A stretch of 64,000 bases of DNA from a virus (taxonomy: Duplodnaviria; Caudoviricetes). The stretch is taken from the IMG/VR virus record IMGVR_UViG_3300024346_000006, one strand, 5' to 3'. Each line of letters begins with the position of its first letter. Within the stretch, counting starts at the first letter, position 1. Below, one piece after another: positions 19,240 to 54,464 of this stretch. Made by a program: the position numbers and the translations under genes. Under the pieces are notes generated by a model that saw only the letters and a list, made by a program, of their open reading frames with translations, was not told where the DNA came from and made no database searches.

Positions 19240-19578
19240 ACTGTGGGCCCGTTTAGTAACAAGGTGGAACCCATACCCCGCTGATCATGCTGCTAGAGCA
19301 AACTCAGGTGCAAAGTTATCGTTTGCGTTTAGTTTTGTTTGACCGAATATCGTAGGTCAACACGGTAATCTACTCTCATCTCTACACACCTGTCGATCCT
19401 ATTTCGCCCCCATCATAAACACACTACTTGCAGTATCTTCCTCTGCGTAACCTCGTTGGAGGTAACTTAGTTTATTCGTAGCCTTGCCACTTCTAGTTCA
19501 AAGCAGTGTGTTTATGGTGGAGGCGTTGGGTACTGCCCCCAAGTCCAGTATGCATGTTGAATCGTATCAACAATTACA
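19240..19578 (-). ncRNA. ssrA: circularly permuted two-piece tmRNA
   Basis: Acceptor piece ending ...TTGGGGGCAGTACCCAACGCCTCCACCA (3' end 19515) precedes the coding piece starting GGGGGCGAAATAGGATCGAC (19411); tag ANDNFAPEFALAA-stop at 19326-19285; outer ends approximate. Confidence 0.93.
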
Positions 19579-19660
19579 AGTTTATTTATACACTATTCTT
19601 TTCTTTTTGTCAAGCAAAAAAATGTATAAAAAAATATAGTGCAATAATACAACACCAATT

Positions 19661-23478: not shown

Positions 23479-23554
23479 TGGTGCCGCCAGGGAGTCTCGA
23501 ACTCCCGACCTGATGCTTACAAGGCAACTGCTCTTCCAGCTGAGCTACAGCGGC
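23479..23554 (-). tRNA. tRNA-Thr(UGU)
   Basis: GCCGCTGTAGCTCAGCTGG...CTTGTAA...GTTCGAGACTCCCTGGCGGCACCA. Confidence 0.93.
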
Positions 23555-23748
23555 GAATTTTCTATTTCATTTTCTCGTTTTTTAATCCAGTCCTTTAATT
23601 CACAAACCCTTCCAACATACATCATATATGCAGCCTGCCATTCTGGTTCTCCAGTAAGAGCCCACTGTTGACTGCACTGATCGGCATTTTGGACTAAATT
23701 TTTAATTATATTCTGGTACTTGTCTCTAAATCCAAGTGACATAAACAT
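23545..23748 (-). CDS. hypothetical protein
   Basis: Small codirectional ORF within the tRNA cluster. Confidence 0.5.
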   Translation of the reverse strand: MFMSLGFRDKYQNIIKNLVQNADQCSQQWALTGEPEWQAAYMMYVGRVCELKDWIKKRENEIENSPL

Positions 23749-23940
23749 TCCTACTATTTTAAAGTCAACTCCAACTTGATTAGAATGGGTTTGTCATCAA
23801 TTATCATTGCAGCGTATGTATCACCACTTTGGATTTGTAAATCTTTTGGAGACTTACTACTATCTAAAAGTATGTTTCCTGCAACATCTATATCAAAATT
23901 TTTCTTTATATTTTCCATCCTCATAATATATATACTTCCT

Positions 23941-24222
23941 TTAAATCCGATAAAAAGTATATTGACATGTAAGCTCTTCGCCAGGCCAAATATCTCTAAT
24001 TGCAACAAGAAAATACCTACTGTCTCTTTGAACCTTTATGATATTTGGTTCATCAGAGTGATTATAAAAAGCACCCAATGGGGTTCTTTGCAAAGTTTCT
24101 CCCCAATAAAAATGTGACAGGCCGATTTCAGTTCCTTCTTTAATCTGATTGACGCACCAAAGTCCTAGTCCATGTATTCCTGATTTTTTTATTGTTACTT
24201 CTTCTGGTAGAGGTTTATACAT
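23941..24222 (-). CDS. SET-domain protein (putative lysine methyltransferase)
   Basis: KKSGIHGLGL, FYNHSDEPN, IRDIWPGEELTCQY. Confidence 0.88.
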   Translation of the reverse strand: MYKPLPEEVTIKKSGIHGLGLWCVNQIKEGTEIGLSHFYWGETLQRTPLGAFYNHSDEPNIIKVQRDSRYFLVAIRDIWPGEELTCQYTFYRI

Positions 24223-24234
24223 TTCGTATCCTTA

Positions 24235-24777
24235 CTATGGGTTGCCGTCTGATTTTGGTACATCAAACACGAAAGTTATTCTTTCGACACCACCTACATT
24301 ATGTGCCTGATGGTATTTTTTATTATCAAACCAGAAGAAGGTGCCAGGCTTAATAGTATGCCACTCACCATCAACTTCATAATCATATTCACCCTGCAAG
24401 GAAAGATGATACCTATCTCTAGTTAAGTAATAAGTTCCTTCGTCTATATGTTTACCTACCCACTCATCAACCCCCAACTTAAAAAAGGCGGCTCTTGATA
24501 ATTGTGTTATTCCTTGACTTCTCAACCATTTAGAAACTTCATCATATTTATCATAGAGTTCAGTCTTTTGAGTCTTTTCTGTATTCTTTGGACTTTCTCC
24601 TGGCTTTACAACTGCCATGACTAGAGGCAAAAATCCATATGGGTCTAAATCGCCTCCAACATCTTTTCCATCTGCATTTAAATTATTAACATATTTCCAG
24701 TCATCTTGGTTATCAAGAACCTGTTGTAATATCTTACTCACATCTAAGTTCTTTGCAATAAATCTAAAATTACTCAA
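24235..24777 (-). CDS. aspartyl/asparaginyl beta-hydroxylase-like 2OG-Fe(II) oxygenase
   Basis: HID.GTYY..RDRYHLSL, FWFDNKKYH.A.N....RITFVFD. Confidence 0.82.
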   Translation of the reverse strand: MSNFRFIAKNLDVSKILQQVLDNQDDWKYVNNLNADGKDVGGDLDPYGFLPLVMAVVKPGESPKNTEKTQKTELYDKYDEVSKWLRSQGITQLSRAAFFKLGVDEWVGKHIDEGTYYLTRDRYHLSLQGEYDYEVDGEWHTIKPGTFFWFDNKKYHQAHNVGGVERITFVFDVPKSDGNP

Positions 24778-24797
24778 ATAATATCCTACTCATTGTT

Positions 24798-24873
24798 TGG
24801 CTCCCAGAGAGGGGTTCGAACCCCCGACCCAATGATTAACAGTCATTTGCTCTACCAACTGAGCTATCTGGGA
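24798..24873 (-). tRNA. tRNA-Asn(GUU)
   Basis: TCCCAGATAGCTCAGTTGG...CTGTTAA...GTTCGAACCCCTCTCTGGGAGCCA. Confidence 0.95.
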
Positions 24874-24887
24874 ATAATCCTCTAAAT

Positions 24888-24964
24888 TGGTCGGAGTTAG
24901 AGGATTCGAACCTCTGACCCTCTGCTCCCAAAGCAGATGCGCTACCAGACTGCGCCAAACTCCG
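24888..24964 (-). tRNA. tRNA-Pro(UGG)
   Basis: CGGAGTTTGGCGCAGTCTGG...TTTGGGA...GTTCGAATCCTCTAACTCCGACCA. Confidence 0.95.
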
Positions 24965-24993
24965 TTTATAATCCGCCGCCATGGATTTTTATT

Positions 24994-25068
24994 TGGAGCG
25001 GGTAGTCAGAATCGAACTGACATCAAAAGGTTGGAAACCTCTTATAATAACCATTATACGATACCCGC
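24994..25068 (-). tRNA. tRNA-Gly(UCC)
   Basis: GCGGGTATCGTATAATGG...TTTCCAA...GTTCGATTCTGACTACCCGCTCCA. Confidence 0.93.
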
Positions 25069-25272
25069 CTAAACTTCAACATCAATGTTACCAACTGGTT
25101 CGACTATTCTCATCTTTCCAGTTCTATCATATGTTCTATAAACTTCTTCAACTCTAATAGAGCCTCCAAAATCTTTGTGTGTTACTACAATGTTATGAAT
25201 TTTATCACCGACATTAAGTTGTCTAACATACTCACTCACAATTCTTACTGGTGGTACTGGTGATACTTGCAT
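25069..25272 (-). CDS. hypothetical protein
   Basis: Small ORF between tRNA genes. Confidence 0.5.
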   Translation of the reverse strand: MQVSPVPPVRIVSEYVRQLNVGDKIHNIVVTHKDFGGSIRVEEVYRTYDRTGKMRIVEPVGNIDVEV

Positions 25273-25442
25273 TACAGTAACTCTAAATAAAAAGGACAGT
25301 AGGTGTTGATGTTCACCGCAGTTTGAGGGGTTGCAGGCCGCTTTATTTTCTTGTACATTAGTCGCCTCTTCCTACTGTCCGCCCCTGTTTAATCTTGTGT
25401 CTTATATTTAGTGTCGTTTTCAGGCACTCACTCGACATTAAT

Positions 25443-25519
25443 TGGCCTGCCCTGTAGGATTCGAACCTACGACCCACAGCTTAGAAGGCTGTTGCTCTAT
25501 CCAGCTGAGCTAAGGGCAG
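25443..25519 (-). tRNA. tRNA-Arg(UCU)
   Basis: CTGCCCTTAGCTCAGCTGG...CTTCTAA...GTTCGAATCCTACAGGGCAGGCCA. Confidence 0.95.
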
Positions 25520-42433: not shown

Positions 42434-42781
42434 TTAATTCGTATTCTTAGTCGCAATCCGATTCATCATATCATTAAATTCATTGGGATCTAGTAATCGA
42501 TCTCTATTTTTTTCAAAGTGGTTATCTAATATTTCTATCCTAACTAACTCCATCAGAGTTTCTGCAATTTGTCTTTTTTTCGGCGAACATGAAGTCAAAT
42601 ATATTGACAATTCGGCATTCGATGTACAACTCCACAATTCGTCCATAATACCATGATATTTTTTTGGTATGTTATCGACTCTAAGTTCCATATTGGTCTC
42701 CTCATTCATATTTATTACCATTTTGCACGATAAAATATGTGCGAACCAATTCGGCCTATACGATCCTTTTTTGTTGTCCAA
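42434..42781 (-). CDS. hypothetical protein (start probably MNEETN)
   Basis: 5' part overlaps the sleB-like gene. Confidence 0.5.
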   Translation of the reverse strand: MDNKKGSYRPNWFAHILSCKMVINMNEETNMELRVDNIPKKYHGIMDELWSCTSNAELSIYLTSCSPKKRQIAETLMELVRIEILDNHFEKNRDRLLDPNEFNDMMNRIATKNTN

Positions 42782-43281
42782 TATGGTTTAACGTATGTTG
42801 CATGATAGTGTGTGGCACCCTCTGTCAATCCACGGTACGAACCAAGATAATAATCTCTTGCAAATTTTCTAGAACGATCCCATGAAGTAATATCTTTTGG
42901 AACATCCGATTTTCCATCACAATACCAAGAAAACTGACATTTGTGACGAGCCATTACTAATTTATTTGGATCTTTCCAAGATGGTTTCTTGTGCCCTTGA
43001 TATATCACATCACAAATTGTATCTGGAAAATGTTTATGGTTTACCCTATTCATTACAACATCACTAACAGCCATAGCATCAGCGAGTGAAACTGCCCTAG
43101 TTTCCCAATATACATTCAGTGCAAGACATTCTATAGAAGCAATATCATCAACAGTCATGGGGTTTTTATCTTCCATGTGTGTTGCAGCAGAAGCTACTGA
43201 GAGCATACTAACAACTATAAGTCCATTTAATGCAATTGTTGCAGTGTTTTTAAGTTTTCTTCCGAATTGTGTAAGTGTCAT
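42715..43281 (-). CDS. cell wall hydrolase, SleB/Hydrolase_2 family
   Basis: CLALNVYWETR, VVMNRV...FPDTIC.VIYQ, CQFSWYCDGK, GATHYHATYV.PYW, IGSHIFY. Confidence 0.92.
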   Translation of the reverse strand: MTLTQFGRKLKNTATIALNGLIVVSMLSVASAATHMEDKNPMTVDDIASIECLALNVYWETRAVSLADAMAVSDVVMNRVNHKHFPDTICDVIYQGHKKPSWKDPNKLVMARHKCQFSWYCDGKSDVPKDITSWDRSRKFARDYYLGSYRGLTEGATHYHATYVKPYWTTKKDRIGRIGSHIFYRAKW

Positions 43282-46376: not shown

Positions 46377-46405
46377 AAAAAAAAGTCCTTGAAAAACAAG
46401 GACTT
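46377..46405 (-). terminator. intrinsic terminator after iscA
   Basis: AAGTCCTTG-N5-CAAGGACTT stem followed by a U-run on the minus strand. Confidence 0.7.
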
Positions 46406-46425: not shown

Positions 46426-46761
46426 TTAAATATTTACACTAACACCACACCCACAAGAACTCTTTGCTTGTGGATTGTCTACTATTAACATACTACCAGC
46501 GAGACTTTCTTGATAGTCAATGGTACTACCTAATACATAGATTAAACTATGACTATCTACTACAAATACTTTACCATCTGATAATTCTATAATTTCATCG
46601 GAGTCTTTTATAGGTTCTTCACTTCCAAGTTTCCAAAAGTACTCAAAACCAGCACACCCACCACCTTGCAATCCAAACATTATGTAAGTTTCGTTGTTTT
46701 TATTTAAAATATTCAGTAGGTGTGTTTTGGCGTTATTGGTTATCGATAAGACTGTAGGCAT
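46426..46761 (-). CDS. iscA: A-type Fe-S carrier (IscA/HesB family)
   Basis: GGGCAGFEY, GSTIDY, NPQAKSSCGCGVS. Confidence 0.93.
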   Translation of the reverse strand: MPTVLSITNNAKTHLLNILNKNNETYIMFGLQGGGCAGFEYFWKLGSEEPIKDSDEIIELSDGKVFVVDSHSLIYVLGSTIDYQESLAGSMLIVDNPQAKSSCGCGVSVNI

Positions 46762-46805: not shown

Positions 46806-47132
46806 TTATTTATGTTTATTTTTATGTGAATTCGATTTTAACTTGGCCTTTAATTTGTCCATTTCACTACTGGTGTTCTCTTTTTTGTCCCTCTTTTCCA
46901 CTTCGACAACTTGTTCCCGCCGTAAGGAATGAATATAGTCTGTCTCAGCGAGTCCTTTTCTAAGTTCCGCAGCTCTACGTTTAATATCTCCCGTTCTTTC
47001 TTGGAGTCTATATGCTGGTTCATTTTGTTGTTGCTCTAAATATTCCATCCCAATTTTCTGGGAGATCTTGCGTTGACATGTAATCACAACGTTCCATCCA
47101 CATATCGTAATATCCATCCATTTTACCATCAA
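46806..47132 (-). CDS. hypothetical basic coiled-coil protein (start probably MEYLEQ)
   Basis: 5' extension overlaps the cyclase 3' end. Confidence 0.5.
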   Translation of the reverse strand: MMVKWMDITICGWNVVITCQRKISQKIGMEYLEQQQNEPAYRLQERTGDIKRRAAELRKGLAETDYIHSLRREQVVEVEKRDKKENTSSEMDKLKAKLKSNSHKNKHK

Positions 47133-49062
47133 AGTGTCCTTTCAGTAACTCACACAGTTCTATGGCCTTGTCGAACTGTTTCTTTCTATAAAACTTTAAC
47201 ATATTTCTATGTACTAATTTATACTTTGACCAATCGGCCTTTTCCTCATCTAATACCGTGTATATTGGCAACCCGATACTTTTTCCCTTTACCGCAAGGT
47301 CGTCTAGTTTTAAATAAAAGAAATCACCTTTAGTTCTTCTATATGTTTCTGGGCCGATAATCAATAATACACCATATGCCTTACATTGTCCTTCTAAACG
47401 TGCCGTAGTAGACACCGAATCTCCAAGGACATCATAACTATATCTTTTAGACGAACCCATCTCTCCAATATAACCAACACCAGTATTAATACCAGCACCC
47501 ATACCAACTGGTGGTCTTCCATCGGCAACAAGTCTATCGTTAAACTTCTCAACCGCCTTTAACATCTCCAATCCTGTTCTTACAGATGTATGTGCATGTG
47601 ATTCGTCATCAATTGGTGCGTTGTGAATATGCATAGATGCATCACCAATATACTTAATTATCATTCCGTTATTTTTTAGTACTGGTTCTGTAATAGCATC
47701 CATATATCCGTTCATTATCTCAGTCAGTCCCTGCACATCATCACCAAAAGATTCTCCTAACGGAGTGAATCCTCTCAAATCAGAAAAACAGATACTGATA
47801 TCTCTTTTAGTACCTTTCTTTACAAGGTCTGGATTTTCTTGTAATATTTTAACCACTGCTGGCGAAGCATATCCCTCAAACTGTTTCTTAATAGCCTGTT
47901 TCTGTAAGAACTCATCTAAAAATTTTACAACATATCTACTAAGTCCAACCAATAGTAATATTGCAGAAATGGTTGCACCATCAATGAGTAGATTCTCTGT
48001 TCTAAATGCATATATTGATCCACCAACAAATCCTACTATTGATACAACATAAAATCCCAATCCTAGATATGTCCACTTTGATAATAATATAATAAGAAGT
48101 CCTGCAACCACTAATGCAGTAATTTCTCCCCACACCTTTGCGTCTGGATGTCTTATTATATTAGATTCGTTGAATACGGTTCCTAACATCGCCGCCTGTA
48201 TTTCGTGTGGCCATACTCCACCTTTTGCGGTAGAAATTGGTTGTGTGACTCCAGATGCACTAACTCCAACAAATACAACTGCACCGTCAAAACTATCTGG
48301 TAAATCCATAATACTTGCACTTCTATATTTCTGCGACCAATCAATCCAAACTTCTCCCAATTCATTTGTCTGAATGGGCCCATATTGTGGTATTCTAAGT
48401 TTATCTACCCCCAATGGTGATAACTTAATTTGGAATGATTTGTCACCAGCAAGTACTCTCAATACTTCCATTGTCAAACTAGGGTATAAGTCACCACCAG
48501 ATTCAAAAACTAATGGGGCCCTTCTTGTAACACCATCAATTTCTGGATAAGTATCGGTTATCCCTGAACCAAGTGCATAAGTTTCAAGTAATTTAATATT
48601 AGATGTGATGCCAGATACACTTGGAATGAGATGCATAAACTCAGGATTAATAATTCCAGCGCCAGGGTTAATCGGTTCATTTTTATTCTCCTCTGATCCT
48701 ATAATACTCAGAATGACTGGATATTCCATCATTACTCTTGATAGAACTTCATCCTTTTCAAATCTATCACTTTCACTCATAAGTACATTAAATACAACTA
48801 ATCCTGCACCTCTATCGTACAAATCTTTAATTATATCTGCGTATATGTTTCGTGGAAACGGCCATTGTCCATATTGATTGATAGTTGCATCATCAATATT
48901 AACCGCATAGATATTGTTTTCTTGGGTTGGTTGATTTACTATAAGACTATCGAAATATCTAAGTCTTAAACTTTCTAATAAATTTGGATTGGTATAGTAC
49001 CCATAAGTACACAAAAGAAGTATGATAATACTCCATATTGGGGATAACAAAAACTTTCTCAT
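47020..49062 (-). CDS. CHASE2-domain membrane adenylate/guanylate cyclase (class III)
   Basis: N-terminal TM; CHASE2 (VNIDDATI..YGQWPFPR, DGVTRR); three TMs; FSDLRGFT, IIKYIGDA, GINTG, YDVLGDSVSTTARLEG, VKGK. Confidence 0.93.
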   Translation of the reverse strand: MRKFLLSPIWSIIILLLCTYGYYTNPNLLESLRLRYFDSLIVNQPTQENNIYAVNIDDATINQYGQWPFPRNIYADIIKDLYDRGAGLVVFNVLMSESDRFEKDEVLSRVMMEYPVILSIIGSEENKNEPINPGAGIINPEFMHLIPSVSGITSNIKLLETYALGSGITDTYPEIDGVTRRAPLVFESGGDLYPSLTMEVLRVLAGDKSFQIKLSPLGVDKLRIPQYGPIQTNELGEVWIDWSQKYRSASIMDLPDSFDGAVVFVGVSASGVTQPISTAKGGVWPHEIQAAMLGTVFNESNIIRHPDAKVWGEITALVVAGLLIILLSKWTYLGLGFYVVSIVGFVGGSIYAFRTENLLIDGATISAILLLVGLSRYVVKFLDEFLQKQAIKKQFEGYASPAVVKILQENPDLVKKGTKRDISICFSDLRGFTPLGESFGDDVQGLTEIMNGYMDAITEPVLKNNGMIIKYIGDASMHIHNAPIDDESHAHTSVRTGLEMLKAVEKFNDRLVADGRPPVGMGAGINTGVGYIGEMGSSKRYSYDVLGDSVSTTARLEGQCKAYGVLLIIGPETYRRTKGDFFYLKLDDLAVKGKSIGLPIYTVLDEEKADWSKYKLVHRNMLKFYRKKQFDKAIELCELLKGHFDGKMDGYYDMWMERCDYMSTQDLPENWDGIFRATTK

Positions 49063-49069
49063 TTTTACC

Positions 49070-49753
49070 TCAATTGTTTCCGTCTACAGTTACCGAGCAT
49101 CCTGCCGAATTTGTACAATATCCTGTAATACTATAAGATCCAGTAGATGAATTTACATTTTGACTCAAGTTTAATGTATATGCACCACCAGAATTAGTTA
49201 AATCTATTGCAGCTGTTGCACTATGACTACCTCTTTGGTTTACATCGACTGTATGTCCATCACCTGTAAGTACAATATCTGCCCATTTCTGTCCGTCATT
49301 CCCTCTTTGATACAGGTCTACTGTGTTACTGTCGCCCTGTATCTCTACAAAACCATCATGTCCAGCCTTACCCATTTGTATATGTTCTACTGTATTACTA
49401 TCGCCATTTACTATATTTGCTAAGTGGTGTGCTGCGCCGCCTCCACCACCTCTATTGGTATCTGTTTGATAACTTCCAACTGTATTTCCATCACCTGTTA
49501 CAGTCCAATATGCCTCATGGCCGCCCGTTTCATCACCATCATATGTATTATCATCATGAATACCTTGACGTATAGTAATATCGTTATTTGGGCCTGTAGA
49601 ATTTAGATTGATATAATTGTTTTCACTGCGTTGTTGAATCTCCAAAGTAAGATTGTCACCACTTTGAGTAATGTAGATTTCATTACTACTGACTTTGGAC
49701 GATATCAATAGTGTTGCTACCAACACCAAGGCGGTAATCGTATATTGCCTCAT
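49070..49753 (-). CDS. secreted curlin-repeat-like protein 2
   Basis: Signal peptide; NEIYITQSGDNL; repeats GDGNTVGSYQ, GDSNTVEHIQ, GDSNTVDLYQ, GDGHTVDVNQ. Confidence 0.75.
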   Translation of the reverse strand: MRQYTITALVLVATLLISSKVSSNEIYITQSGDNLTLEIQQRSENNYINLNSTGPNNDITIRQGIHDDNTYDGDETGGHEAYWTVTGDGNTVGSYQTDTNRGGGGGAAHHLANIVNGDSNTVEHIQMGKAGHDGFVEIQGDSNTVDLYQRGNDGQKWADIVLTGDGHTVDVNQRGSHSATAAIDLTNSGGAYTLNLSQNVNSSTGSYSITGYCTNSAGCSVTVDGNN

Positions 49754-50810
49754 CTCCCTGCTCCATGTTTATTGTATAACCATTTTCTTGGTGCAATTTT
49801 AAATCTAATCTTTGAGTAACACCAGCATCTTCTCTTAGAATTCTCCACATAGGATTGATATCTTCAATAGTAATTCTTGTTGCTTCGTCATATCCATACA
49901 CCCTTTGTGCAAAAAATTCTTCATTCTGTGTATCTAACTCATCTCTAAACATCTCTGCAAGAGACAAGTTTAACTGATCCAACATATCATGTAATAGTTC
50001 TTGTAAATAATAATCTGAATCATGCAATTCTGTTACCCATATATTTTTTACATCTTCAGTTAATGCATCCTGATCCAAATCATCAAATTCTAGAAAGTCT
50101 ATGTCCAGAAAATCAAACATTTTTCTGGCCTTTCTCATAATTTCTTTTTCTTCTTCTTCGTATGGCGTCTTTTTTCTTAACATCAATAAATTATTAATAT
50201 CGCCTTCAGATATATCTAATAGAAGTGGTGGTAATGGTTTCGACCACATACTCTTTACAATAGTAGATTGAAACGCTTGAGTCATTATAACAAACCCTGT
50301 ATCAGTTTCAACTAAGATTTCACCTGTAACACACATACCACTTATATCACAACTTGGTAGTAGTGTAATCATACTACCACCAATTTCATCAACAACCATA
50401 ATAAAATCTGTACCCCTCACACTAATTTTTGCGCTAGGGGTTCTGATATTCACTCTCTGTCTACTATTTGTGGCAATTTTACCACTCGCATAACGAATAG
50501 TACCTAAAGTCGCCCTCAATCCAAGAGAACCAGTTCCACTATTAGGGTCATAAACAAAGTCATCTATTAATAATCTGGTGTGTTCTGTCAAGTCTACTCT
50601 AGTATCATCAATGAAATCTATTCGCATCTTACCACGTTCAGTGACTGCGACATCCATAGACTCAACACTAACACCATAATTACCAGTAATAACATTAGTA
50701 TCTCTTTCTAACACTCCACTTCCACTCAGGTCGGTTATAGTCCCAGCTGCACCATAGAGGTTGTGTGGAAAACATAACACTAAGAGTACTAAGAAGATGT
50801 ACTTAAGCAT
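49686..50810 (-). CDS. secreted FecR-domain protein
   Basis: Signal peptide; IDFIDDTRVDLTEHTRLLIDDFVYDP, IRTPSAKISVRGTDF. Confidence 0.85.
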   Translation of the reverse strand: MLKYIFLVLLVLCFPHNLYGAAGTITDLSGSGVLERDTNVITGNYGVSVESMDVAVTERGKMRIDFIDDTRVDLTEHTRLLIDDFVYDPNSGTGSLGLRATLGTIRYASGKIATNSRQRVNIRTPSAKISVRGTDFIMVVDEIGGSMITLLPSCDISGMCVTGEILVETDTGFVIMTQAFQSTIVKSMWSKPLPPLLLDISEGDINNLLMLRKKTPYEEEEKEIMRKARKMFDFLDIDFLEFDDLDQDALTEDVKNIWVTELHDSDYYLQELLHDMLDQLNLSLAEMFRDELDTQNEEFFAQRVYGYDEATRITIEDINPMWRILREDAGVTQRLDLKLHQENGYTINMEQGDEAIYDYRLGVGSNTIDIVQSQ

Positions 50811-51544
50811 CAGTCTTGTTGTGTTATATTAACGTCTGCACCATCACCAGAAAAAGTTGCGTCAATTAAATTATCATAGATTCCTGACTGTGATATTTTA
50901 TACATACCACCGCCACCAGTAATGTTTAGTGTGATACTGTGTCCGTTAATATCTCCGTTTCCAGTTTGATCTATATCAATGTAGTTTCCTGGCGCACTTG
51001 TAGAAAGTCCTGTAGTTCCATGCGTAAGTGTACCAGATGCAAGACTTGAAGAAGAATCAACTGTAACAGTGATATCTGCATTTGTTCCGTCTTGTATCAA
51101 ATCGATAACATTACCATCTCCAGTAACTGTGAAATCAGCGACTAAATTTTCTGCGTCATTATTCTCACCAATATACATTTGGAATTGATTATTATCACCA
51201 GTAGTAGTAATATCTAATGTAACTGTTTCGCAGTTAACACCCGAAGTAGTATCACAAGTTAAATCTACTGTATTTGTATCTCCAGTAAACACCCAAGTTC
51301 CTGTATAAGTATTACCCTTAATGATAGCATCAATTTCATTGAAGTTACCAGTTTGGGTGATACTAAAAGTCATAGTATCTCCTGTCAAGGTCATATCAGT
51401 AGTAGAATCGCCAATTTTATTATCTTGTCCATCTTGTACAATATCTAAGTCCAGATTATCGCCAGATTGTGTAATATAGATCTCATTAGCGTATGCTGGA
51501 ATACCGTACAAAAGTGCAAAAATTATTAGTATTTTTTTAAACAT
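50810..51544 (-). CDS. secreted curlin-repeat-like protein 1
   Basis: Signal peptide; NEIYITQSGDNL; repeats QTGNFNEI, TGDTNTVDL, TGDNNQFQM, TGDGNVIDLIQDG. Confidence 0.75.
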   Translation of the reverse strand: MFKKILIIFALLYGIPAYANEIYITQSGDNLDLDIVQDGQDNKIGDSTTDMTLTGDTMTFSITQTGNFNEIDAIIKGNTYTGTWVFTGDTNTVDLTCDTTSGVNCETVTLDITTTGDNNQFQMYIGENNDAENLVADFTVTGDGNVIDLIQDGTNADITVTVDSSSSLASGTLTHGTTGLSTSAPGNYIDIDQTGNGDINGHSITLNITGGGGMYKISQSGIYDNLIDATFSGDGADVNITQQD

Positions 51545-51545
51545 A

Positions 51546-52364
51546 TTATTCCTCTTGTTTTAGTTCCATTTTCCAGAGTTGTTTTTTTACTCCACCATAA
51601 ACTAACTCGATCACACCCTGTTCAATTGCCGCTCTGACAGCATAATTAACGGGTTCATTTGATGAAAAGCCGGTTTCAGTTTCTACGAGTTTTGTACCGA
51701 GGTCTAAAAATTTAAATACATCTGCACCACTTCTATAACTTGCAATTGTTTTATCCGTAGCAATACTCATTAACACCTTACCTGTACCAACACTTACTAG
51801 TCGCATAACAACAGTAACAGTATCTATTCTGTATTCTGTTTGTATGCCAACACCCAAGTATCTAGCACCGGCGCCGCCTGTCGCCGTATTTGAATCATAA
51901 CCAACCACTCCCCCTTCAAGGATAAGTCCTGCAAAAATCATAGGACTTAATGGTTCTGGGCCTCCTGGCTTGCTTTTATCATAAACATCCCTTGTCTGTC
52001 TAATCAATTGTCTTTCTTTTATTAAATTATCCATACCAACACGTTCTACAACATCAAACCATGTTCCATTACCCACATCTTGAAGTGCCTTTATAACCCA
52101 AACTTCTGATCCTTGAGTTACTGCAGAACTTAAACTTGCAATATTCGTTGCCGACTTTCTTTGTCCAGTCTTATCCAAAAACTGATAAACAGCGATTGTA
52201 ATTTTTGGGCCATCAATTGGTGGCACGGCCGCAAGACGTTCCTTAATTGGACTCTCTTGCAATTCTGGTGAAATATTAACATCCCGTAAAGTTTGAAGAC
52301 TCTTGTTGGTTGCACACCCAGATAACACTAAAAGAGAGAGTATTACAGGTATTAACTTTCTCAA
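51546..52364 (-). CDS. csgG: curli secretion pore CsgG (lipoprotein)
   Basis: Lipobox LSGC; IAVYQFLDKTGQRK, SSAVTQG, WFDVVER.GMDNLIKERQLIR, GGVVGYD.N..TGGAGARYLG, E.ETGFS.NEPV. Confidence 0.93.
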   Translation of the reverse strand: MRKLIPVILSLLVLSGCATNKSLQTLRDVNISPELQESPIKERLAAVPPIDGPKITIAVYQFLDKTGQRKSATNIASLSSAVTQGSEVWVIKALQDVGNGTWFDVVERVGMDNLIKERQLIRQTRDVYDKSKPGGPEPLSPMIFAGLILEGGVVGYDSNTATGGAGARYLGVGIQTEYRIDTVTVVMRLVSVGTGKVLMSIATDKTIASYRSGADVFKFLDLGTKLVETETGFSSNEPVNYAVRAAIEQGVIELVYGGVKKQLWKMELKQEE

Positions 52365-52822
52365 AAACCAAACTCCCCTGTTGGAATTGTTATTTCAGTA
52401 ATACTTCCATCTTCTTCAGTAACGCTTAATGTTATAGTGCCAGCAATCGGGTCTTTTATCCAAGTTATAGTAGAACCCTCAATAGTAGCAGTTCCAGTAT
52501 TAGAACATATATCTCCACAATCTGCAAACATTGCATCAACCATTTGTTTAGATAGTGTTGCATAAATTCTAGATTCGATGTTTCTTAAAAATTTGGCGAG
52601 AGTTGTATTTTCAAGTTCTCTTTCAATTCTTGCGGCCTCTGCTTCTGCTGATTTTCTCAAGTCTTCTTTTCTGTTATGTTGTAACTGTTCAACACTCAAA
52701 ACATGAGTGGAGTAACCATTTCCATAATGAAAGGCCGGATTCTTAAATCCCCATGTCAGTTCAGAAGCATATAGATTACTGCTCATCAATATTAAACTTA
52801 CAACTATCAGTATTCTGTTCAT
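52361..52822 (-). CDS. csgF: curli assembly protein CsgF
   Basis: Signal peptide then ASELTWGFKNPAF..GNG; FLRNIESRIYATLSKQM; overlaps csgG start. Confidence 0.8.
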   Translation of the reverse strand: MNRILIVVSLILMSSNLYASELTWGFKNPAFHYGNGYSTHVLSVEQLQHNRKEDLRKSAEAEAARIERELENTTLAKFLRNIESRIYATLSKQMVDAMFADCGDICSNTGTATIEGSTITWIKDPIAGTITLSVTEEDGSITEITIPTGEFGF

Positions 52823-52832
52823 GAGTTTTCCT

Positions 52833-53129
52833 CTAAGAATTTTCTTTTCGTTTTTTTATAATTTTTTCTACTTCTTCGTCAGTTGGGATAACAACTCCCT
52901 TCTGTTGTAAGATCATATTTAACTTTGTATTTAATCGAATTAAATCATTGTCTAGCATTCTAACCCTGTCGATCAATGCAATGAGAGTCATATGCGACTC
53001 CTCAATGACAGGATCTACCTCTTCTGTCACCCAATACCATATATAGTATATAAAATATCCTAACCCAAATGCGGCTATGATAGGAAATCCATATTGTCCT
53101 ATTAATGTTCCTAATTCAATACTGTCCAT
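52833..53129 (-). CDS. small membrane protein (TM plus coiled coil), paralog of 53513-53800
   Basis: YGFPIIAAFGLGYFIY...LIDRVRMLDNDLIRL. Confidence 0.7.
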   Translation of the reverse strand: MDSIELGTLIGQYGFPIIAAFGLGYFIYYIWYWVTEEVDPVIEESHMTLIALIDRVRMLDNDLIRLNTKLNMILQQKGVVIPTDEEVEKIIKKRKENS

Positions 53130-53130
53130 T

Positions 53131-53331
53131 TTAGTCTCTATTTACACCTTCATCACCAGAGATGTGACATAACCAACCATTTTCATTTACACGAAAAACA
53201 TCACCAGGCTTATAAAGGTAATTCTTTTTTTTATTTCCATCTGCTTCAAGCCCCATAACTTCACCTTCGTATTCACCACGAATTTTAAAGTTCTTTCCAG
53301 CCTGATCGATGATATAATCTAACCACATCAT
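53131..53331 (-). CDS. small hypothetical protein, similar to 53328-53513
   Basis: YKPGDVFRVNENGWL. Confidence 0.55.
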   Translation of the reverse strand: MMWLDYIIDQAGKNFKIRGEYEGEVMGLEADGNKKKNYLYKPGDVFRVNENGWLCHISGDEGVNRD

Positions 53332-53513
53332 GACGCAATATCCTCCGATACACTTCCAATTTTTTCAAAATAACCATTAGGGCCAACTTGATATAAATCG
53401 CCTATCTGTATCTTTACATCATCAATGACAAAAAATTTATCATCTGGGTTTTTTGCAGACGTAATTCTAAATCCATTTGCAAATTTCGTTAATAGTAAGT
53501 TTTTCCAAAGCAT
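53328..53513 (-). CDS. small hypothetical protein, similar to 53131-53331
   Basis: IQIGDLYQVGPNGYF. Confidence 0.55.
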   Translation of the reverse strand: MLWKNLLLTKFANGFRITSAKNPDDKFFVIDDVKIQIGDLYQVGPNGYFEKIGSVSEDIAS

Positions 53514-53800
53514 TAATCTTTCCTCGCATCTGTTTGTCCATCCGCTCTTGCAATTCTATTGAGGTCTGCAGGCAGTAATGGAATGTTAAATGATCTACAC
53601 ATTAGTATATCAATTCGCAAGAGTTCATTATTCATGGTCTTAACTCTATTATCTAAAGATTGCACAAATCCTCTCTGTGTTTTGATATTATCTAAAACAC
53701 CAGCCAGAATGAATTTTAATGTTAGGAAAACAAAAAAGCCGCCTGCAAGTGCAGAAGCGATGGGAAATCCAACGTCTGCTACTAACGATAAAAAGTCCAT
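53513..53800 (-). CDS. small membrane protein (TM plus coiled coil)
   Basis: VGFPIASALAGGFFVF...LDNRVKTMNNELLRI. Confidence 0.7.
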   Translation of the reverse strand: MDFLSLVADVGFPIASALAGGFFVFLTLKFILAGVLDNIKTQRGFVQSLDNRVKTMNNELLRIDILMCRSFNIPLLPADLNRIARADGQTDARKD

Positions 53801-53819
53801 ATAAAAATCCTCTCAACCC

Positions 53820-53827
53820 TATTTATG
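53820..53827 (-). promoter_or_regulatory. late-promoter variant CATAAATA upstream of the curli/cyclase operon
   Basis: One mismatch to TATAAATA, 20 nt upstream of the ATG, just after a terminator. Confidence 0.6.
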
Positions 53828-53847: not shown

Positions 53848-53874
53848 AAAAAAAAGACAGTATAATACTGTCTT
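53848..53874 (-). terminator. intrinsic terminator
   Basis: AAGACAGTA-N3-TACTGTCTT followed by a U-run on the minus strand. Confidence 0.7.
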
Positions 53875-54071
53875 ATGTAACATTTGTCAGATTTACATCA
53901 GGATATATACCATACTACCAAAGATGCAAGAACAATCCACAAAGAATACTGCAGTCCAAACTTGATGAACCCAAACATAATACTAAGAAATATTCCTATA
54001 GAAACACCAACTACTGCAAGTATTGTTATTATGTCCATCGCTAGTTGTAAATTGCTTCCCATCATAAAAAT

Positions 54072-54464
54072 TCATGTCCTAGTAATTAATTCAACAAGAT
54101 TTAAAGCAACAGAAGTGCCAGATATAGAACTTCCTATCATGATCGCTCTGTCACCCCATTGCATTCCTACTACAACCCATCCTATACTTGCAATCACATA
54201 TAGAATTTGTCCTATCATTTCAAAACCAGAGCTCAATGAAAAAATACCCAAAACTGCAAAGATAGTAGACATCCATTTAATATACCAGTCAAATGTACCG
54301 ACTGGTGTTGTTGGAGTAAGGTCGTCTACTTCACTTTGTAGTTGGGCAAGTTCTTCTTTAAGTCGTTTGCGCTCTTGAGAAAGTTCCATGGCGATTTTTC
54401 CTGCCTTGGACATTTGACTATTTTCAAACTTTTGCTTAATTTTTGGGTCTAAATCATCATCCAT
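54072..54464 (-). CDS. membrane protein with N-terminal coiled coil
   Basis: DWYIKWMSTIFAVLGI...ASIGWVVVG..WGDRAIMI. Confidence 0.65.
   Translation of the reverse strand: MDDDLDPKIKQKFENSQMSKAGKIAMELSQERKRLKEELAQLQSEVDDLTPTTPVGTFDWYIKWMSTIFAVLGIFSLSSGFEMIGQILYVIASIGWVVVGMQWGDRAIMIGSSISGTSVALNLVELITRT

Follow-up and report, generated by a model that had tools for sequence, protein, structure and literature searches.

Why should a marine phage carry an outer-membrane secretion pore, fibre subunits and a membrane-bound cyclase side by side? The question is raised by a cassette in a stretch of 64,000 nucleotides of an uncultured virus of the Caudoviricetes (IMG/VR record IMGVR_UViG_3300024346_000006), which was analysed at its full length and is called the window here. 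The genes run in the order four small open reading frames (ORFs), csgF, csgG, curlin-like 1, a FecR-type gene, curlin-like 2, a gene for a CHASE2 sensor with a cyclase domain, and iscA. A reading made earlier from the letters of this DNA, without database searches (the sequence-only reading), had suggested that the cassette is more than a pore, namely a trans-envelope circuit in which the state of exported amyloid-like proteins is relayed by the FecR protein to the cyclase. In our analysis it is probable, at roughly 0.6, that the CsgG/CsgF channel and its curlin-like cargo are coupled through the FecR-fold protein to the CHASE2 cyclase. We favour this coupling because of the gene order, the general pairing of FecR and CHASE2 genes in bacteria and the curlin-like tail of the FecR-fold protein; every step that goes past the identity of the domains we infer.

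In the proposed mechanism the lipoprotein CsgG and CsgF would be exported by Sec late in infection and would form an outer-membrane channel which the host lacks. The cargo of this channel would be the two paralogous curlin-like beta-repeat proteins. The FecR-fold protein would bridge to the inner membrane, with its C-terminal curlin-like domain docking on, or co-assembling with, the curlins or the pore. Its N-terminal domain would act on the periplasmic CHASE2 domain, and the state of the pore or the fibre would in this way set the synthesis of a cyclic nucleotide, most likely cyclic AMP (cAMP). Two small proteins with a single transmembrane (TM) helix, TM1 and TM2, would be a phage-specific addition, perhaps holin-like.

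One gene set in phages and bacterial chromosomes

The cassette is a member of the viral type VIII secretion (curli) module published for pelagiphages, here carried by an uncultured marine myophage of T4-like type, a relative of HTVC008M and Melnitz. The arrangement histidine kinase (HK)-CsgF-CsgG-CsgA/B-FecR-CsgA/B-adenylate cyclase was described in podo- and myo-pelagiphages by Wittmers et al. 2022 (PMC9599517), who recorded the module at all 65 GOV2 stations, found it expressed in metatranscriptomes and reported an alphaproteobacterial affinity for four of its proteins. A CsgF/CsgG cluster in pelagimyophages had been described by Zaragoza-Solas et al. 2020 (PMC7029224), with 'sibling capture' as the proposed role, while Buchholz et al. 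2022 (PMC9004378) confined their discussion to CsgGF, which they proposed to be a pore for lysis timing in Melnitz. A literature search found no later experimental paper on the viral curli module. By blastn the region matched only Melnitz (four isolates; MZ577097) and HTVC008M (KC465899), both of which are annotated with the same gene order. The nucleotide identity to them is at most 68.5% over one third of the region, and the module proteins are 43-55% identical to their counterparts in the two phages. The sequence-only reading had named csgF/csgG pairs from these phages and was right in this, but the precedent is not confined to the pair, since the whole six-gene set has already been published (PMC9599517).

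The IMG/VR database was scanned with a CsgG alignment, which gave 80 loci, in 27 of which the sequence extends for at least 2.5 kb upstream of csgG and at least 8 kb downstream of it. All 27 contained csgF, a FecR-type gene and a CHASE2 gene with a cyclase domain; at least one curlin-like gene was likewise present in 27/27 and two in 25/27. A membrane protein of the family phrog_18771, to which TM1 and TM2 belong, was found in 26 of the 27 loci, and as a pair in 25. The order csgF-csgG-curlin-FecR-curlin-cyclase was invariant in all 27, thus the synteny search proposed with the sequence-only reading came out in favour of the six-gene set being conserved as a whole. Distant FecR homologues of 40-45% identity stand in the same gene context.

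Bacterial genome contigs were searched with a profile made from a 9-sequence FecR alignment and then by tblastn. Contiguous csgF-csgG-curlin(-curlin)-FecR-CHASE2 cyclase sets were found in a Henriciella metagenome-assembled genome (MAG; locus L024, on a 397-kb contig) and in the Caulobacteraceae MAGs L016 and L019. They are flanked by genes for TonB-dependent receptors, FAA hydrolase, methylmalonyl-CoA mutase and acyl-CoA dehydrogenase, the GC content of the bacterial module (0.51-0.53) is near that of the flanks, and the cyclase and FecR proteins encoded there share 35-46% identity with their phage counterparts. Since these sets are contiguous and have ordinary chromosomal flanks, FecR and the cyclase form part of the curli operon of some bacteria, at odds with what Wittmers et al. 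wrote (PMC9599517). The set is rare: among 81 genomes sampled from the family of the Henriciella MAG, only this MAG itself had a FecR homologue at E 1e-20, so that the transfer may have gone from bacterium to phage or the other way.

The occurrence of the same gene set in alphaproteobacterial MAG chromosomes would also agree with host or bacterial DNA having been mis-joined to the phage contig. We give this almost no probability. In the window the cassette stands between genes for the baseplate hub, the tail and the tail fibres, and the GC content of the module is 0.362 compared with 0.363 in the rest of the window, far from the values of the bacterial copies. The module also stands at the same place in cultured phages and in dozens of IMG/VR contigs. 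The phage setting assumed in the sequence-only reading is therefore sound.

The pairing of FecR and CHASE2 extends beyond curli genes. In 25 of 67 further bacterial loci a CHASE2 gene was found within 5 kb of the FecR homologue. It is on the same strand in 19 of these loci and fused to a class III cyclase in 13, and csgG is present in none of them. The FecR-CHASE2 pairing is general in bacteria. The 'BiofilmReg' operon of Burkholderia encodes a LysM-FecR protein together with a CHASE2 kinase (PMC5192318). In S. meliloti the cAMP output of CHASE2 cyclases goes up when a protein signal is received via the outer-membrane barrel NsrA (PMC13001267), and the cAMP pathway supplied by CHASE2 cyclases has the FecR-domain gene smc02177 among its targets (PMC5498481).

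That such pairs are common without csgG nearby also speaks for a different explanation, in which two units merely travel together: CsgF/CsgG/curlin fibres with a role in aggregation, 'sibling capture' or superinfection shielding, and an independent FecR-CHASE2 sensor of some other cue. Fibre-based roles have been proposed for the module (PMC7029224, PMC9599517), and in some phage lineages the cyclase gene is set apart by 1-5 intervening unrelated genes, so that its linkage looks looser than that of the core; this last point weighs against the coupling. However, the FecR gene always lies between both curlin-like genes and overlaps the second, and its product ends in the curlin motif and matches the curlin profile. 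The full set has, in addition, remained undivided both in bacteria and in two families of phages (PMC9599517), and no clumping of Melnitz-infected cells was observed (Buchholz et al., PMC9004378). On balance we consider it unlikely, although a serious candidate, that the two halves are independent.

SAR11 single-cell genomes (L036:6542-12811; also L039, L041, L061 and L069) have an envelope-sensor cluster of their own, which encodes a CHASE2-SpoIIE protein (PP2C phosphatase), a DUF2860 protein, a FecR-domain protein of 190 amino acids and a protein of 344 amino acids, with a divergent GAF-SpoIIE gene. The phage FecR-CHASE2 pair may parallel this host cluster or interfere with it, and it is conceivable that the GAF domain is a reader of cyclic nucleotides.

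The FecR-fold protein, the curlins and the pore

The sequence-only reading had regarded the FecR protein as a relay of envelope signals. Its signal peptide is its sole hydrophobic segment and there is no transmembrane segment. The AlphaFold2 (AF2) model (pLDDT 80) consists of a confident beta domain (residues 23-200), a low-confidence, acidic and partly helical linker (approx. 205-300) and a confident C-terminal domain of seven strands (305-372). The N-terminal domain (approx. 50-212) could be superposed on the C-terminal cell-surface signalling domain (CCSSD) of PupR (6ovk chain R) with a VIA Z of 15.4 and a root-mean-square deviation (rmsd) of 2.5 over 136 residues. Residues 19-113 also fitted the retention module of MpIBP (5ix9; Z 7.4, rmsd 2.2, 22% identity, 73/76 residues), which was the best PDB match of the FecR family profile as well (E 0.004); with the NCBIfam retention_LapA model the phage protein gave no match at E 0.1. 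A FecR-type anti-sigma factor was ruled out, as the protein has only a signal peptide, no transmembrane segment and no anti-sigma domain, and Pfam scans of the module genes gave neither a sigma factor nor a TonB-dependent transducer. Thus the FecR/PupR fold agrees with the relay idea, but the protein is not of the canonical FecR anti-sigma type.

The last 41 residues of the FecR-fold protein can be aligned over their full length to the repeats at the C-terminus of curlin-like 1. The hhalign score of the FecR C-terminus was 28.0 (P 1.5e-4) against curlin-like 1 and 22.8 against curlin-like 2, whereas column shuffles scored 8.6 +/- 1.7 with a maximum of 13.8 (0/150 reached the observed value) and the reversed control scored 12.8. 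The motif h-x-h-x-Q-x(0-4)-COOH occurs in 61/63 FecR, 58/63 curlin-like 1 and 40/49 curlin-like 2 sequences, as compared with 27/1302 other ORFs of the same loci. This curlin likeness is a sequence-level result obtained from profiles and a short motif, because the C-terminal domain modelled alone reached a best Z of only 4.4 among 48,161 chains and resembled no curlin or other clear fold, an outcome that speaks neither for nor against a curlin-type solenoid.

Judged by their signal peptides and repeats, both curlin-like proteins are predicted to be secreted curlin-repeat subunits. They are paralogues of each other (hhalign probability 99.5%, E 4e-23); the Curlin_rpt score of curlin-like 1 is just below the cut-off of 20.7 bits, which curlin-like 2 clearly passes. 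The last 68 nt of the FecR gene (49686-49753) are shared, in another frame, with the start of curlin-like 2, so that the same DNA encodes the curlin-like last strands of FecR and the signal peptide of curlin-like 2. Overlaps of 29-113 nt at this place are also found in Melnitz, HTVC008M and L003. Curlin-like 2 and its relatives have a conserved cysteine pair, C-x5-6-C, just before the C-terminal strand, which curlin-like 1 lacks; the pair suggests a disulphide-locked last turn.

In the pore itself, CsgF matched its Pfam profile with 47.7 bits (cut-off 25.8) over positions 4-132 of 132, though phmmer against PDB chains gave no CsgF match. The csgF gene overlaps the start of csgG by 4 nt. CsgG had a Pfam score of 165 bits and matched E. 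coli CsgG over its full length (E 8e-49). The constriction residues Y51, N55 and F56 of E. coli CsgG are aligned by phmmer to A, S and L in the phage protein, and from this alignment the constriction of the phage channel may be wider or differently lined. No CsgE, CsgC or CsgD family was detected by Pfam in any ORF of the module, as had been noticed for csgE and csgD from the sequence alone; the same absence has been stated for the alphaproteobacterial and viral versions (PMC9599517).

These features of the channel would suit an ungated pore for import or export, in which CsgG without CsgE lets small solutes through, for instance cofactors or iron chelates, and the FecR-type protein takes part in an iron-related uptake signal, as suggested in PMC7029224 and PMC9599517. 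The replacement of Y51/N55/F56 could indeed widen the pore. Such a function, however, leaves CsgF and the two curlin-like proteins unexplained, the FecR protein has neither the transmembrane nor the anti-sigma part of the iron-citrate FecR, and the module has no gene for a TonB-dependent transducer or an extracytoplasmic function (ECF) sigma factor. An open pore is therefore very improbable as the purpose of the cassette.

The preferred coupling through the FecR-fold protein can be drawn in a more specific form, which we put forward as speculative and doubtful. The FecR-fold protein might be a 'tethered curlin' that makes a sensor of the secretion pore: its C-terminal repeats would exit via CsgG/CsgF and nucleate or join the fibre, the acidic linker of approx. 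95 residues would be threaded in the channel, and the N-terminal domain would stay at the periplasmic mouth and touch CHASE2. If this were true, the fibre load of the surface or the occupancy of the pore would be converted directly into cytoplasmic cyclic-nucleotide synthesis. It would amount to a mechano- or occupancy-sensing type VIII secretion that appeared first in Alphaproteobacteria and was then adopted by marine phages. The predicted complex of CHASE2 (24-312) with the FecR N-terminal domain (22-205) had a score of 0.18 (mark 0.32) and counts neither way.

The cyclase, the small membrane proteins and the locus

In the cyclase, CHASE2 was matched at residues 16-324 (122 bits) and Guanylate_cyc at 416-594 (59 bits). 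The protein has an N-terminal transmembrane helix, the periplasmic CHASE2 domain, a hydrophobic block at approx. 310-400, the cytoplasmic cyclase domain and a helical tail of about 75 residues. The cyclase domain matches the solved adenylate cyclases CyaB (3r5g) and phytochrome-cyclase (6fht). Both metal-binding Asp residues, the ATP-selecting Lys/Asp pair and the transition-state Arg are present, these columns being conserved in 12 homologues; the presumed product is cAMP. Two side observations concern the relatives. The phage cyclases split into two clades by their catalytic motif, K/D with Ser and K/T with Asn, and the helical tail (approx. 605-680) is conserved: most relatives and the Henriciella copy have it, HTVC008M does not. 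In several relatives a gene for a small DUF6356 protein, absent from the window, lies directly 3' of the cyclase gene (L003:18735-18932, L010:12538-12681).

Besides the looser linkage of the cyclase gene, a few results tell against the coupling. One is the structural comparison of the isolated FecR C-terminal domain given above. Another is that the transition-state Asn (GDxVN) is replaced by Ser in the window, Melnitz, L003, L006, L011, L013, L015 and L017, while it is retained in HTVC008M, L009, L010, L016, L022 and Henriciella. In mammalian cyclase mutants an Asn-to-Ser exchange at this position lowers kcat. The conservation of the Ser clade across 47-69% identity argues against decay of these cyclases. 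Finally, a possible receptor of the product was sought: the cyclic nucleotide-binding domain cNMP_binding (PF00027) was not found in Melnitz, HTVC008M and one SAR11 single-cell genome, nor was such a domain found in the window with a rough 4-sequence profile, but with incomplete genomes and a weak profile these negatives are not proof of absence. The circuit envisaged in the sequence-only reading thus has comparative support from the FecR-CHASE2 neighbours, the curlin-like FecR tail and the NsrA precedent (PMC13001267), and has against it the Ser at the catalytic Asn position and the failure to find a cAMP receptor in the related phages or the SAR11 genome.

The four small ORFs are there as the sequence-only reading had listed them; what it had missed is that two of them, TM1 and TM2, are paralogous membrane proteins linked to the module. 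Members of phrog_18771 stand just 5' of csgF on the same strand in 11 loci and 3' of the cyclase gene on the opposite strand in 15. Among 50,697 GenBank phage records only six have the family, all of them with the FecR gene (Melnitz, HTVC008M). TM1 and TM2 showed no HisKA or HATPase match even at E 10, and the 'HK' label used in PMC9599517, if it means these proteins, is not supported by their sequences here. In the ESM Atlas the nearest clusters of TM2 are viral and one is auto-named 'Holin family protein' (0.96); YvrJ/BhlA clusters (0.84-0.87) are leads only, and the Pfam YvrJ match of the TM proteins is weak (E 0.1 across 10 residues only). TM2 is possibly holin-like. Homologues of the 61-aa protein adjoin the module in Melnitz, L003, L015 and L018, and those of the 66-aa protein in Melnitz, L003, L006, L012, L015, L017 and L018; in Melnitz both come after the cyclase gene.

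The resemblance of the two module-linked single-TM proteins to viral clusters, one of them auto-named holin, brings in the lysis device proposed for Melnitz (PMC9004378). In analogy to T4 lysis inhibition, a CsgG(F) pore would permeabilise the outer membrane or depolarise the envelope as infection ends, the TM proteins would act like holins, and FecR and the cyclase would set the timing. A late-type promoter motif on the cluster and a SleB-type cell-wall hydrolase gene, a candidate endolysin, 3.5 kb downstream of the module would be in keeping with this. On the other side, the set without the TM pair is found in bacterial chromosomes, where a role in phage lysis is impossible. The holin label is an automatic name without a family-level match, the TM pair is on the opposite strand, 3' of the cyclase gene, in 15/26 loci, and two conserved cargo proteins of fibre type are left unexplained. 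A lysis or lysis-timing role is thus, in our judgement, quite improbable. The three alternatives, two units, lysis timing and an open pore, are mostly about the purpose of the cassette and less about its architecture.

The locus is packed like an operon, as the sequence-only reading had it, and the gene identities and places on the minus strand given there were confirmed by the ORFs and their Pfam and PHROG matches (Table 1). The cassette genes are all on the minus strand between two terminator-like hairpins (53874-46383) and are tightly packed, with intergenic gaps or overlaps of -68 to +10 nt. A hairpin scan gave just two weak 5-bp candidates between the upstream terminator and the one after iscA, in agreement with the claim that there is no terminator until that point. 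The late-promoter-like CATAAATA was also rightly recognised. Over the whole window the motif ATAAATA is no commoner than expected (28 copies against 28.6). It occurs, however, within 120 nt 5' of the first cluster gene in 49/77 related viral loci as compared with 123/4000 random 120-nt windows (3%). In the related loci it is often directly 3' of a terminator hairpin, a placement that fits T4-type late transcription. Two marine metatranscriptome runs contained 6-7% of the sampled words and gave only short contigs of relatives at 92-95%, mostly over the CHASE2 part; these carry no information on co-transcription in the phage of the window.

Since iscA adjoins the module in just two other loci (L018 and L023), it is a neighbour and not a part of the module; it has an ATAAATA of its own, 46 nt upstream (46813-46807). 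Two ORFs at the end of the cyclase gene, of 57 and 108 amino acids, are probably not genes, having relatives in no locus; the 57-aa ORF had no family match and no tblastn match in any related locus. Elsewhere in the window there are a permuted two-piece tmRNA of alphaproteobacterial type and five tRNA genes, a set like that described for Melnitz-type phages and pelagimyophages (PMC9004378). No glutamine riboswitch reached the gathering score in the window.

Table 1. Positions of the cassette features and of other elements in the window.
Feature	Position	Strand	Evidence or remark
DUF6552 protein gene	54072..54464	-	2e-10; just 5' of the upstream terminator
Hydrophobic 55-aa ORF	53898..54065		between the DUF6552 gene and the terminator
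Terminator-like hairpin closing the upstream unit	53848..53874	-	9-bp stem 53874-53854, then TTTTTT
T4-late-promoter-like CATAAATA	53820..53827	-	20 nt 5' of the first ATG
TM1, 95 aa, N-terminal transmembrane helix and coiled-coil tail	53513..53800	-	phrog_18771, 7e-24
Acidic soluble 61-aa protein	53328..53513	-	no Pfam or PHROG match
Acidic soluble 66-aa protein	53131..53331	-	no Pfam or PHROG match
TM2, 98-aa paralogue of TM1	52833..53129	-	phrog_18771, 1.6e-28
csgF, secreted adaptor of the CsgG channel	52361..52822	-	Pfam CsgF 2.2e-12, signal peptide
csgG	51546..52364	-	Pfam CsgG 1.8e-48, lipobox LSGC, TTG start
Curlin-like 1	50810..51544	-	signal peptide and G-D-x-N-x-h-x-h-x-Q-type repeats; Curlin_rpt 20.0 bits
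Secreted FecR-fold protein	49686..50810	-	Pfam FecR 1.3e-7, 32.4 bits
Curlin-like 2	49070..49753	-	Curlin_rpt 2.2e-9, 37.6 bits (cut-off 20.7); signal peptide
CHASE2 sensor with class III cyclase	47020..49062	-	Pfam CHASE2 3.7e-35, Guanylate_cyc 4.6e-16
108-aa ORF, TTG start	46806..47132		probably not a gene
57-aa basic ORF overlapping the cyclase stop	46850..47023	-	doubtful gene
IscA-like Fe-S assembly gene	46426..46761	-	Pfam Fe-S_biosyn 1.3e-13
Terminator-like hairpin 3' of iscA	46383..46405	-	9-bp stem, then T-run
SleB-type cell-wall hydrolase gene	42715..43281	-	Pfam Hydrolase_2 2e-23
Five tRNA genes	23482..25519	-	
Permuted two-piece tmRNA	19242..19632	-	Rfam RF04321 125 bits, RF01849 119 bits

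Meaning of the cassette and comparison with known systems

Phages of the SAR11 and OM43 type are among the most abundant marine viruses, and the cassette makes up about 5% of their genome. With it the infected cell gains secretion machinery in the outer membrane and a membrane-bound cyclase, neither of which the host has, and knowing whether its role is in aggregation, phage exclusion, lysis timing or uptake would change the view of how infected cells behave in the open ocean. What is new here beyond the published module is the curlin-like FecR tail, the general FecR-CHASE2 pairing, the chromosomal counterparts in bacteria, the conserved pair of small membrane proteins and the clade-wide Asn-to-Ser change of the cyclase. 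These increments make a module that was published descriptively testable as a trans-envelope sensor, and the culturable bacteria offer routes for its study.

Compared with the module of Wittmers et al., the cassette has the same genes in the same order, no csgC, csgD or csgE, and the same background of a marine T4-like phage. The differences are that the window comes from a different, uncultured phage and that genes for single-TM proteins of approx. 95 amino acids stand at the 'histidine kinase' position. The alphaproteobacterial chromosomal loci share the contiguous set, its order and its domain content, but they are without the phrog_18771 TM pair and their cyclase retains the catalytic Asn.

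With the FecR/PupR anti-sigma regulators the phage FecR-fold protein has in common the N-terminal beta domain, which superposes on the PupR CCSSD. In place of the anti-sigma domain and the transmembrane helix it has a cleavable signal peptide, and it adds the acidic linker and the curlin-like C-terminal domain. The retention modules of LapA/MpIBP-type adhesins resemble it in overall plan, in which a long flexible linker joins a folded N-terminal domain to a C-terminus of fibre type. This similarity is weak, and those adhesins, unlike the phage module, use type I secretion via a TolC-like pore.

The NsrA-CyaD1/CyaD2/CyaK pathway of S. meliloti likewise combines CHASE2 class III cyclases with a signal from an outer-membrane barrel, and its regulon includes the periplasmic FecR-domain protein SMc02177. 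There, however, the partner is NsrA and not CsgG/CsgF, and the readout is the CRP-type Clr; a counterpart of Clr was found neither in the related phages Melnitz and HTVC008M nor in one SAR11 genome.

The secretion part can be compared with the curli system of E. coli and Salmonella (csgBAC-csgDEFG), with which the phage module shares the CsgG lipoprotein channel, the CsgF adaptor and Sec-dependent subunits with curlin repeats. The phage module does without the CsgE gate, the CsgC chaperone and the CsgD regulator, its subunits are longer and their repeats divergent, and the constriction residues of its channel are replaced. To the curli machinery the phage module adds a FecR-fold protein and a cyclase.

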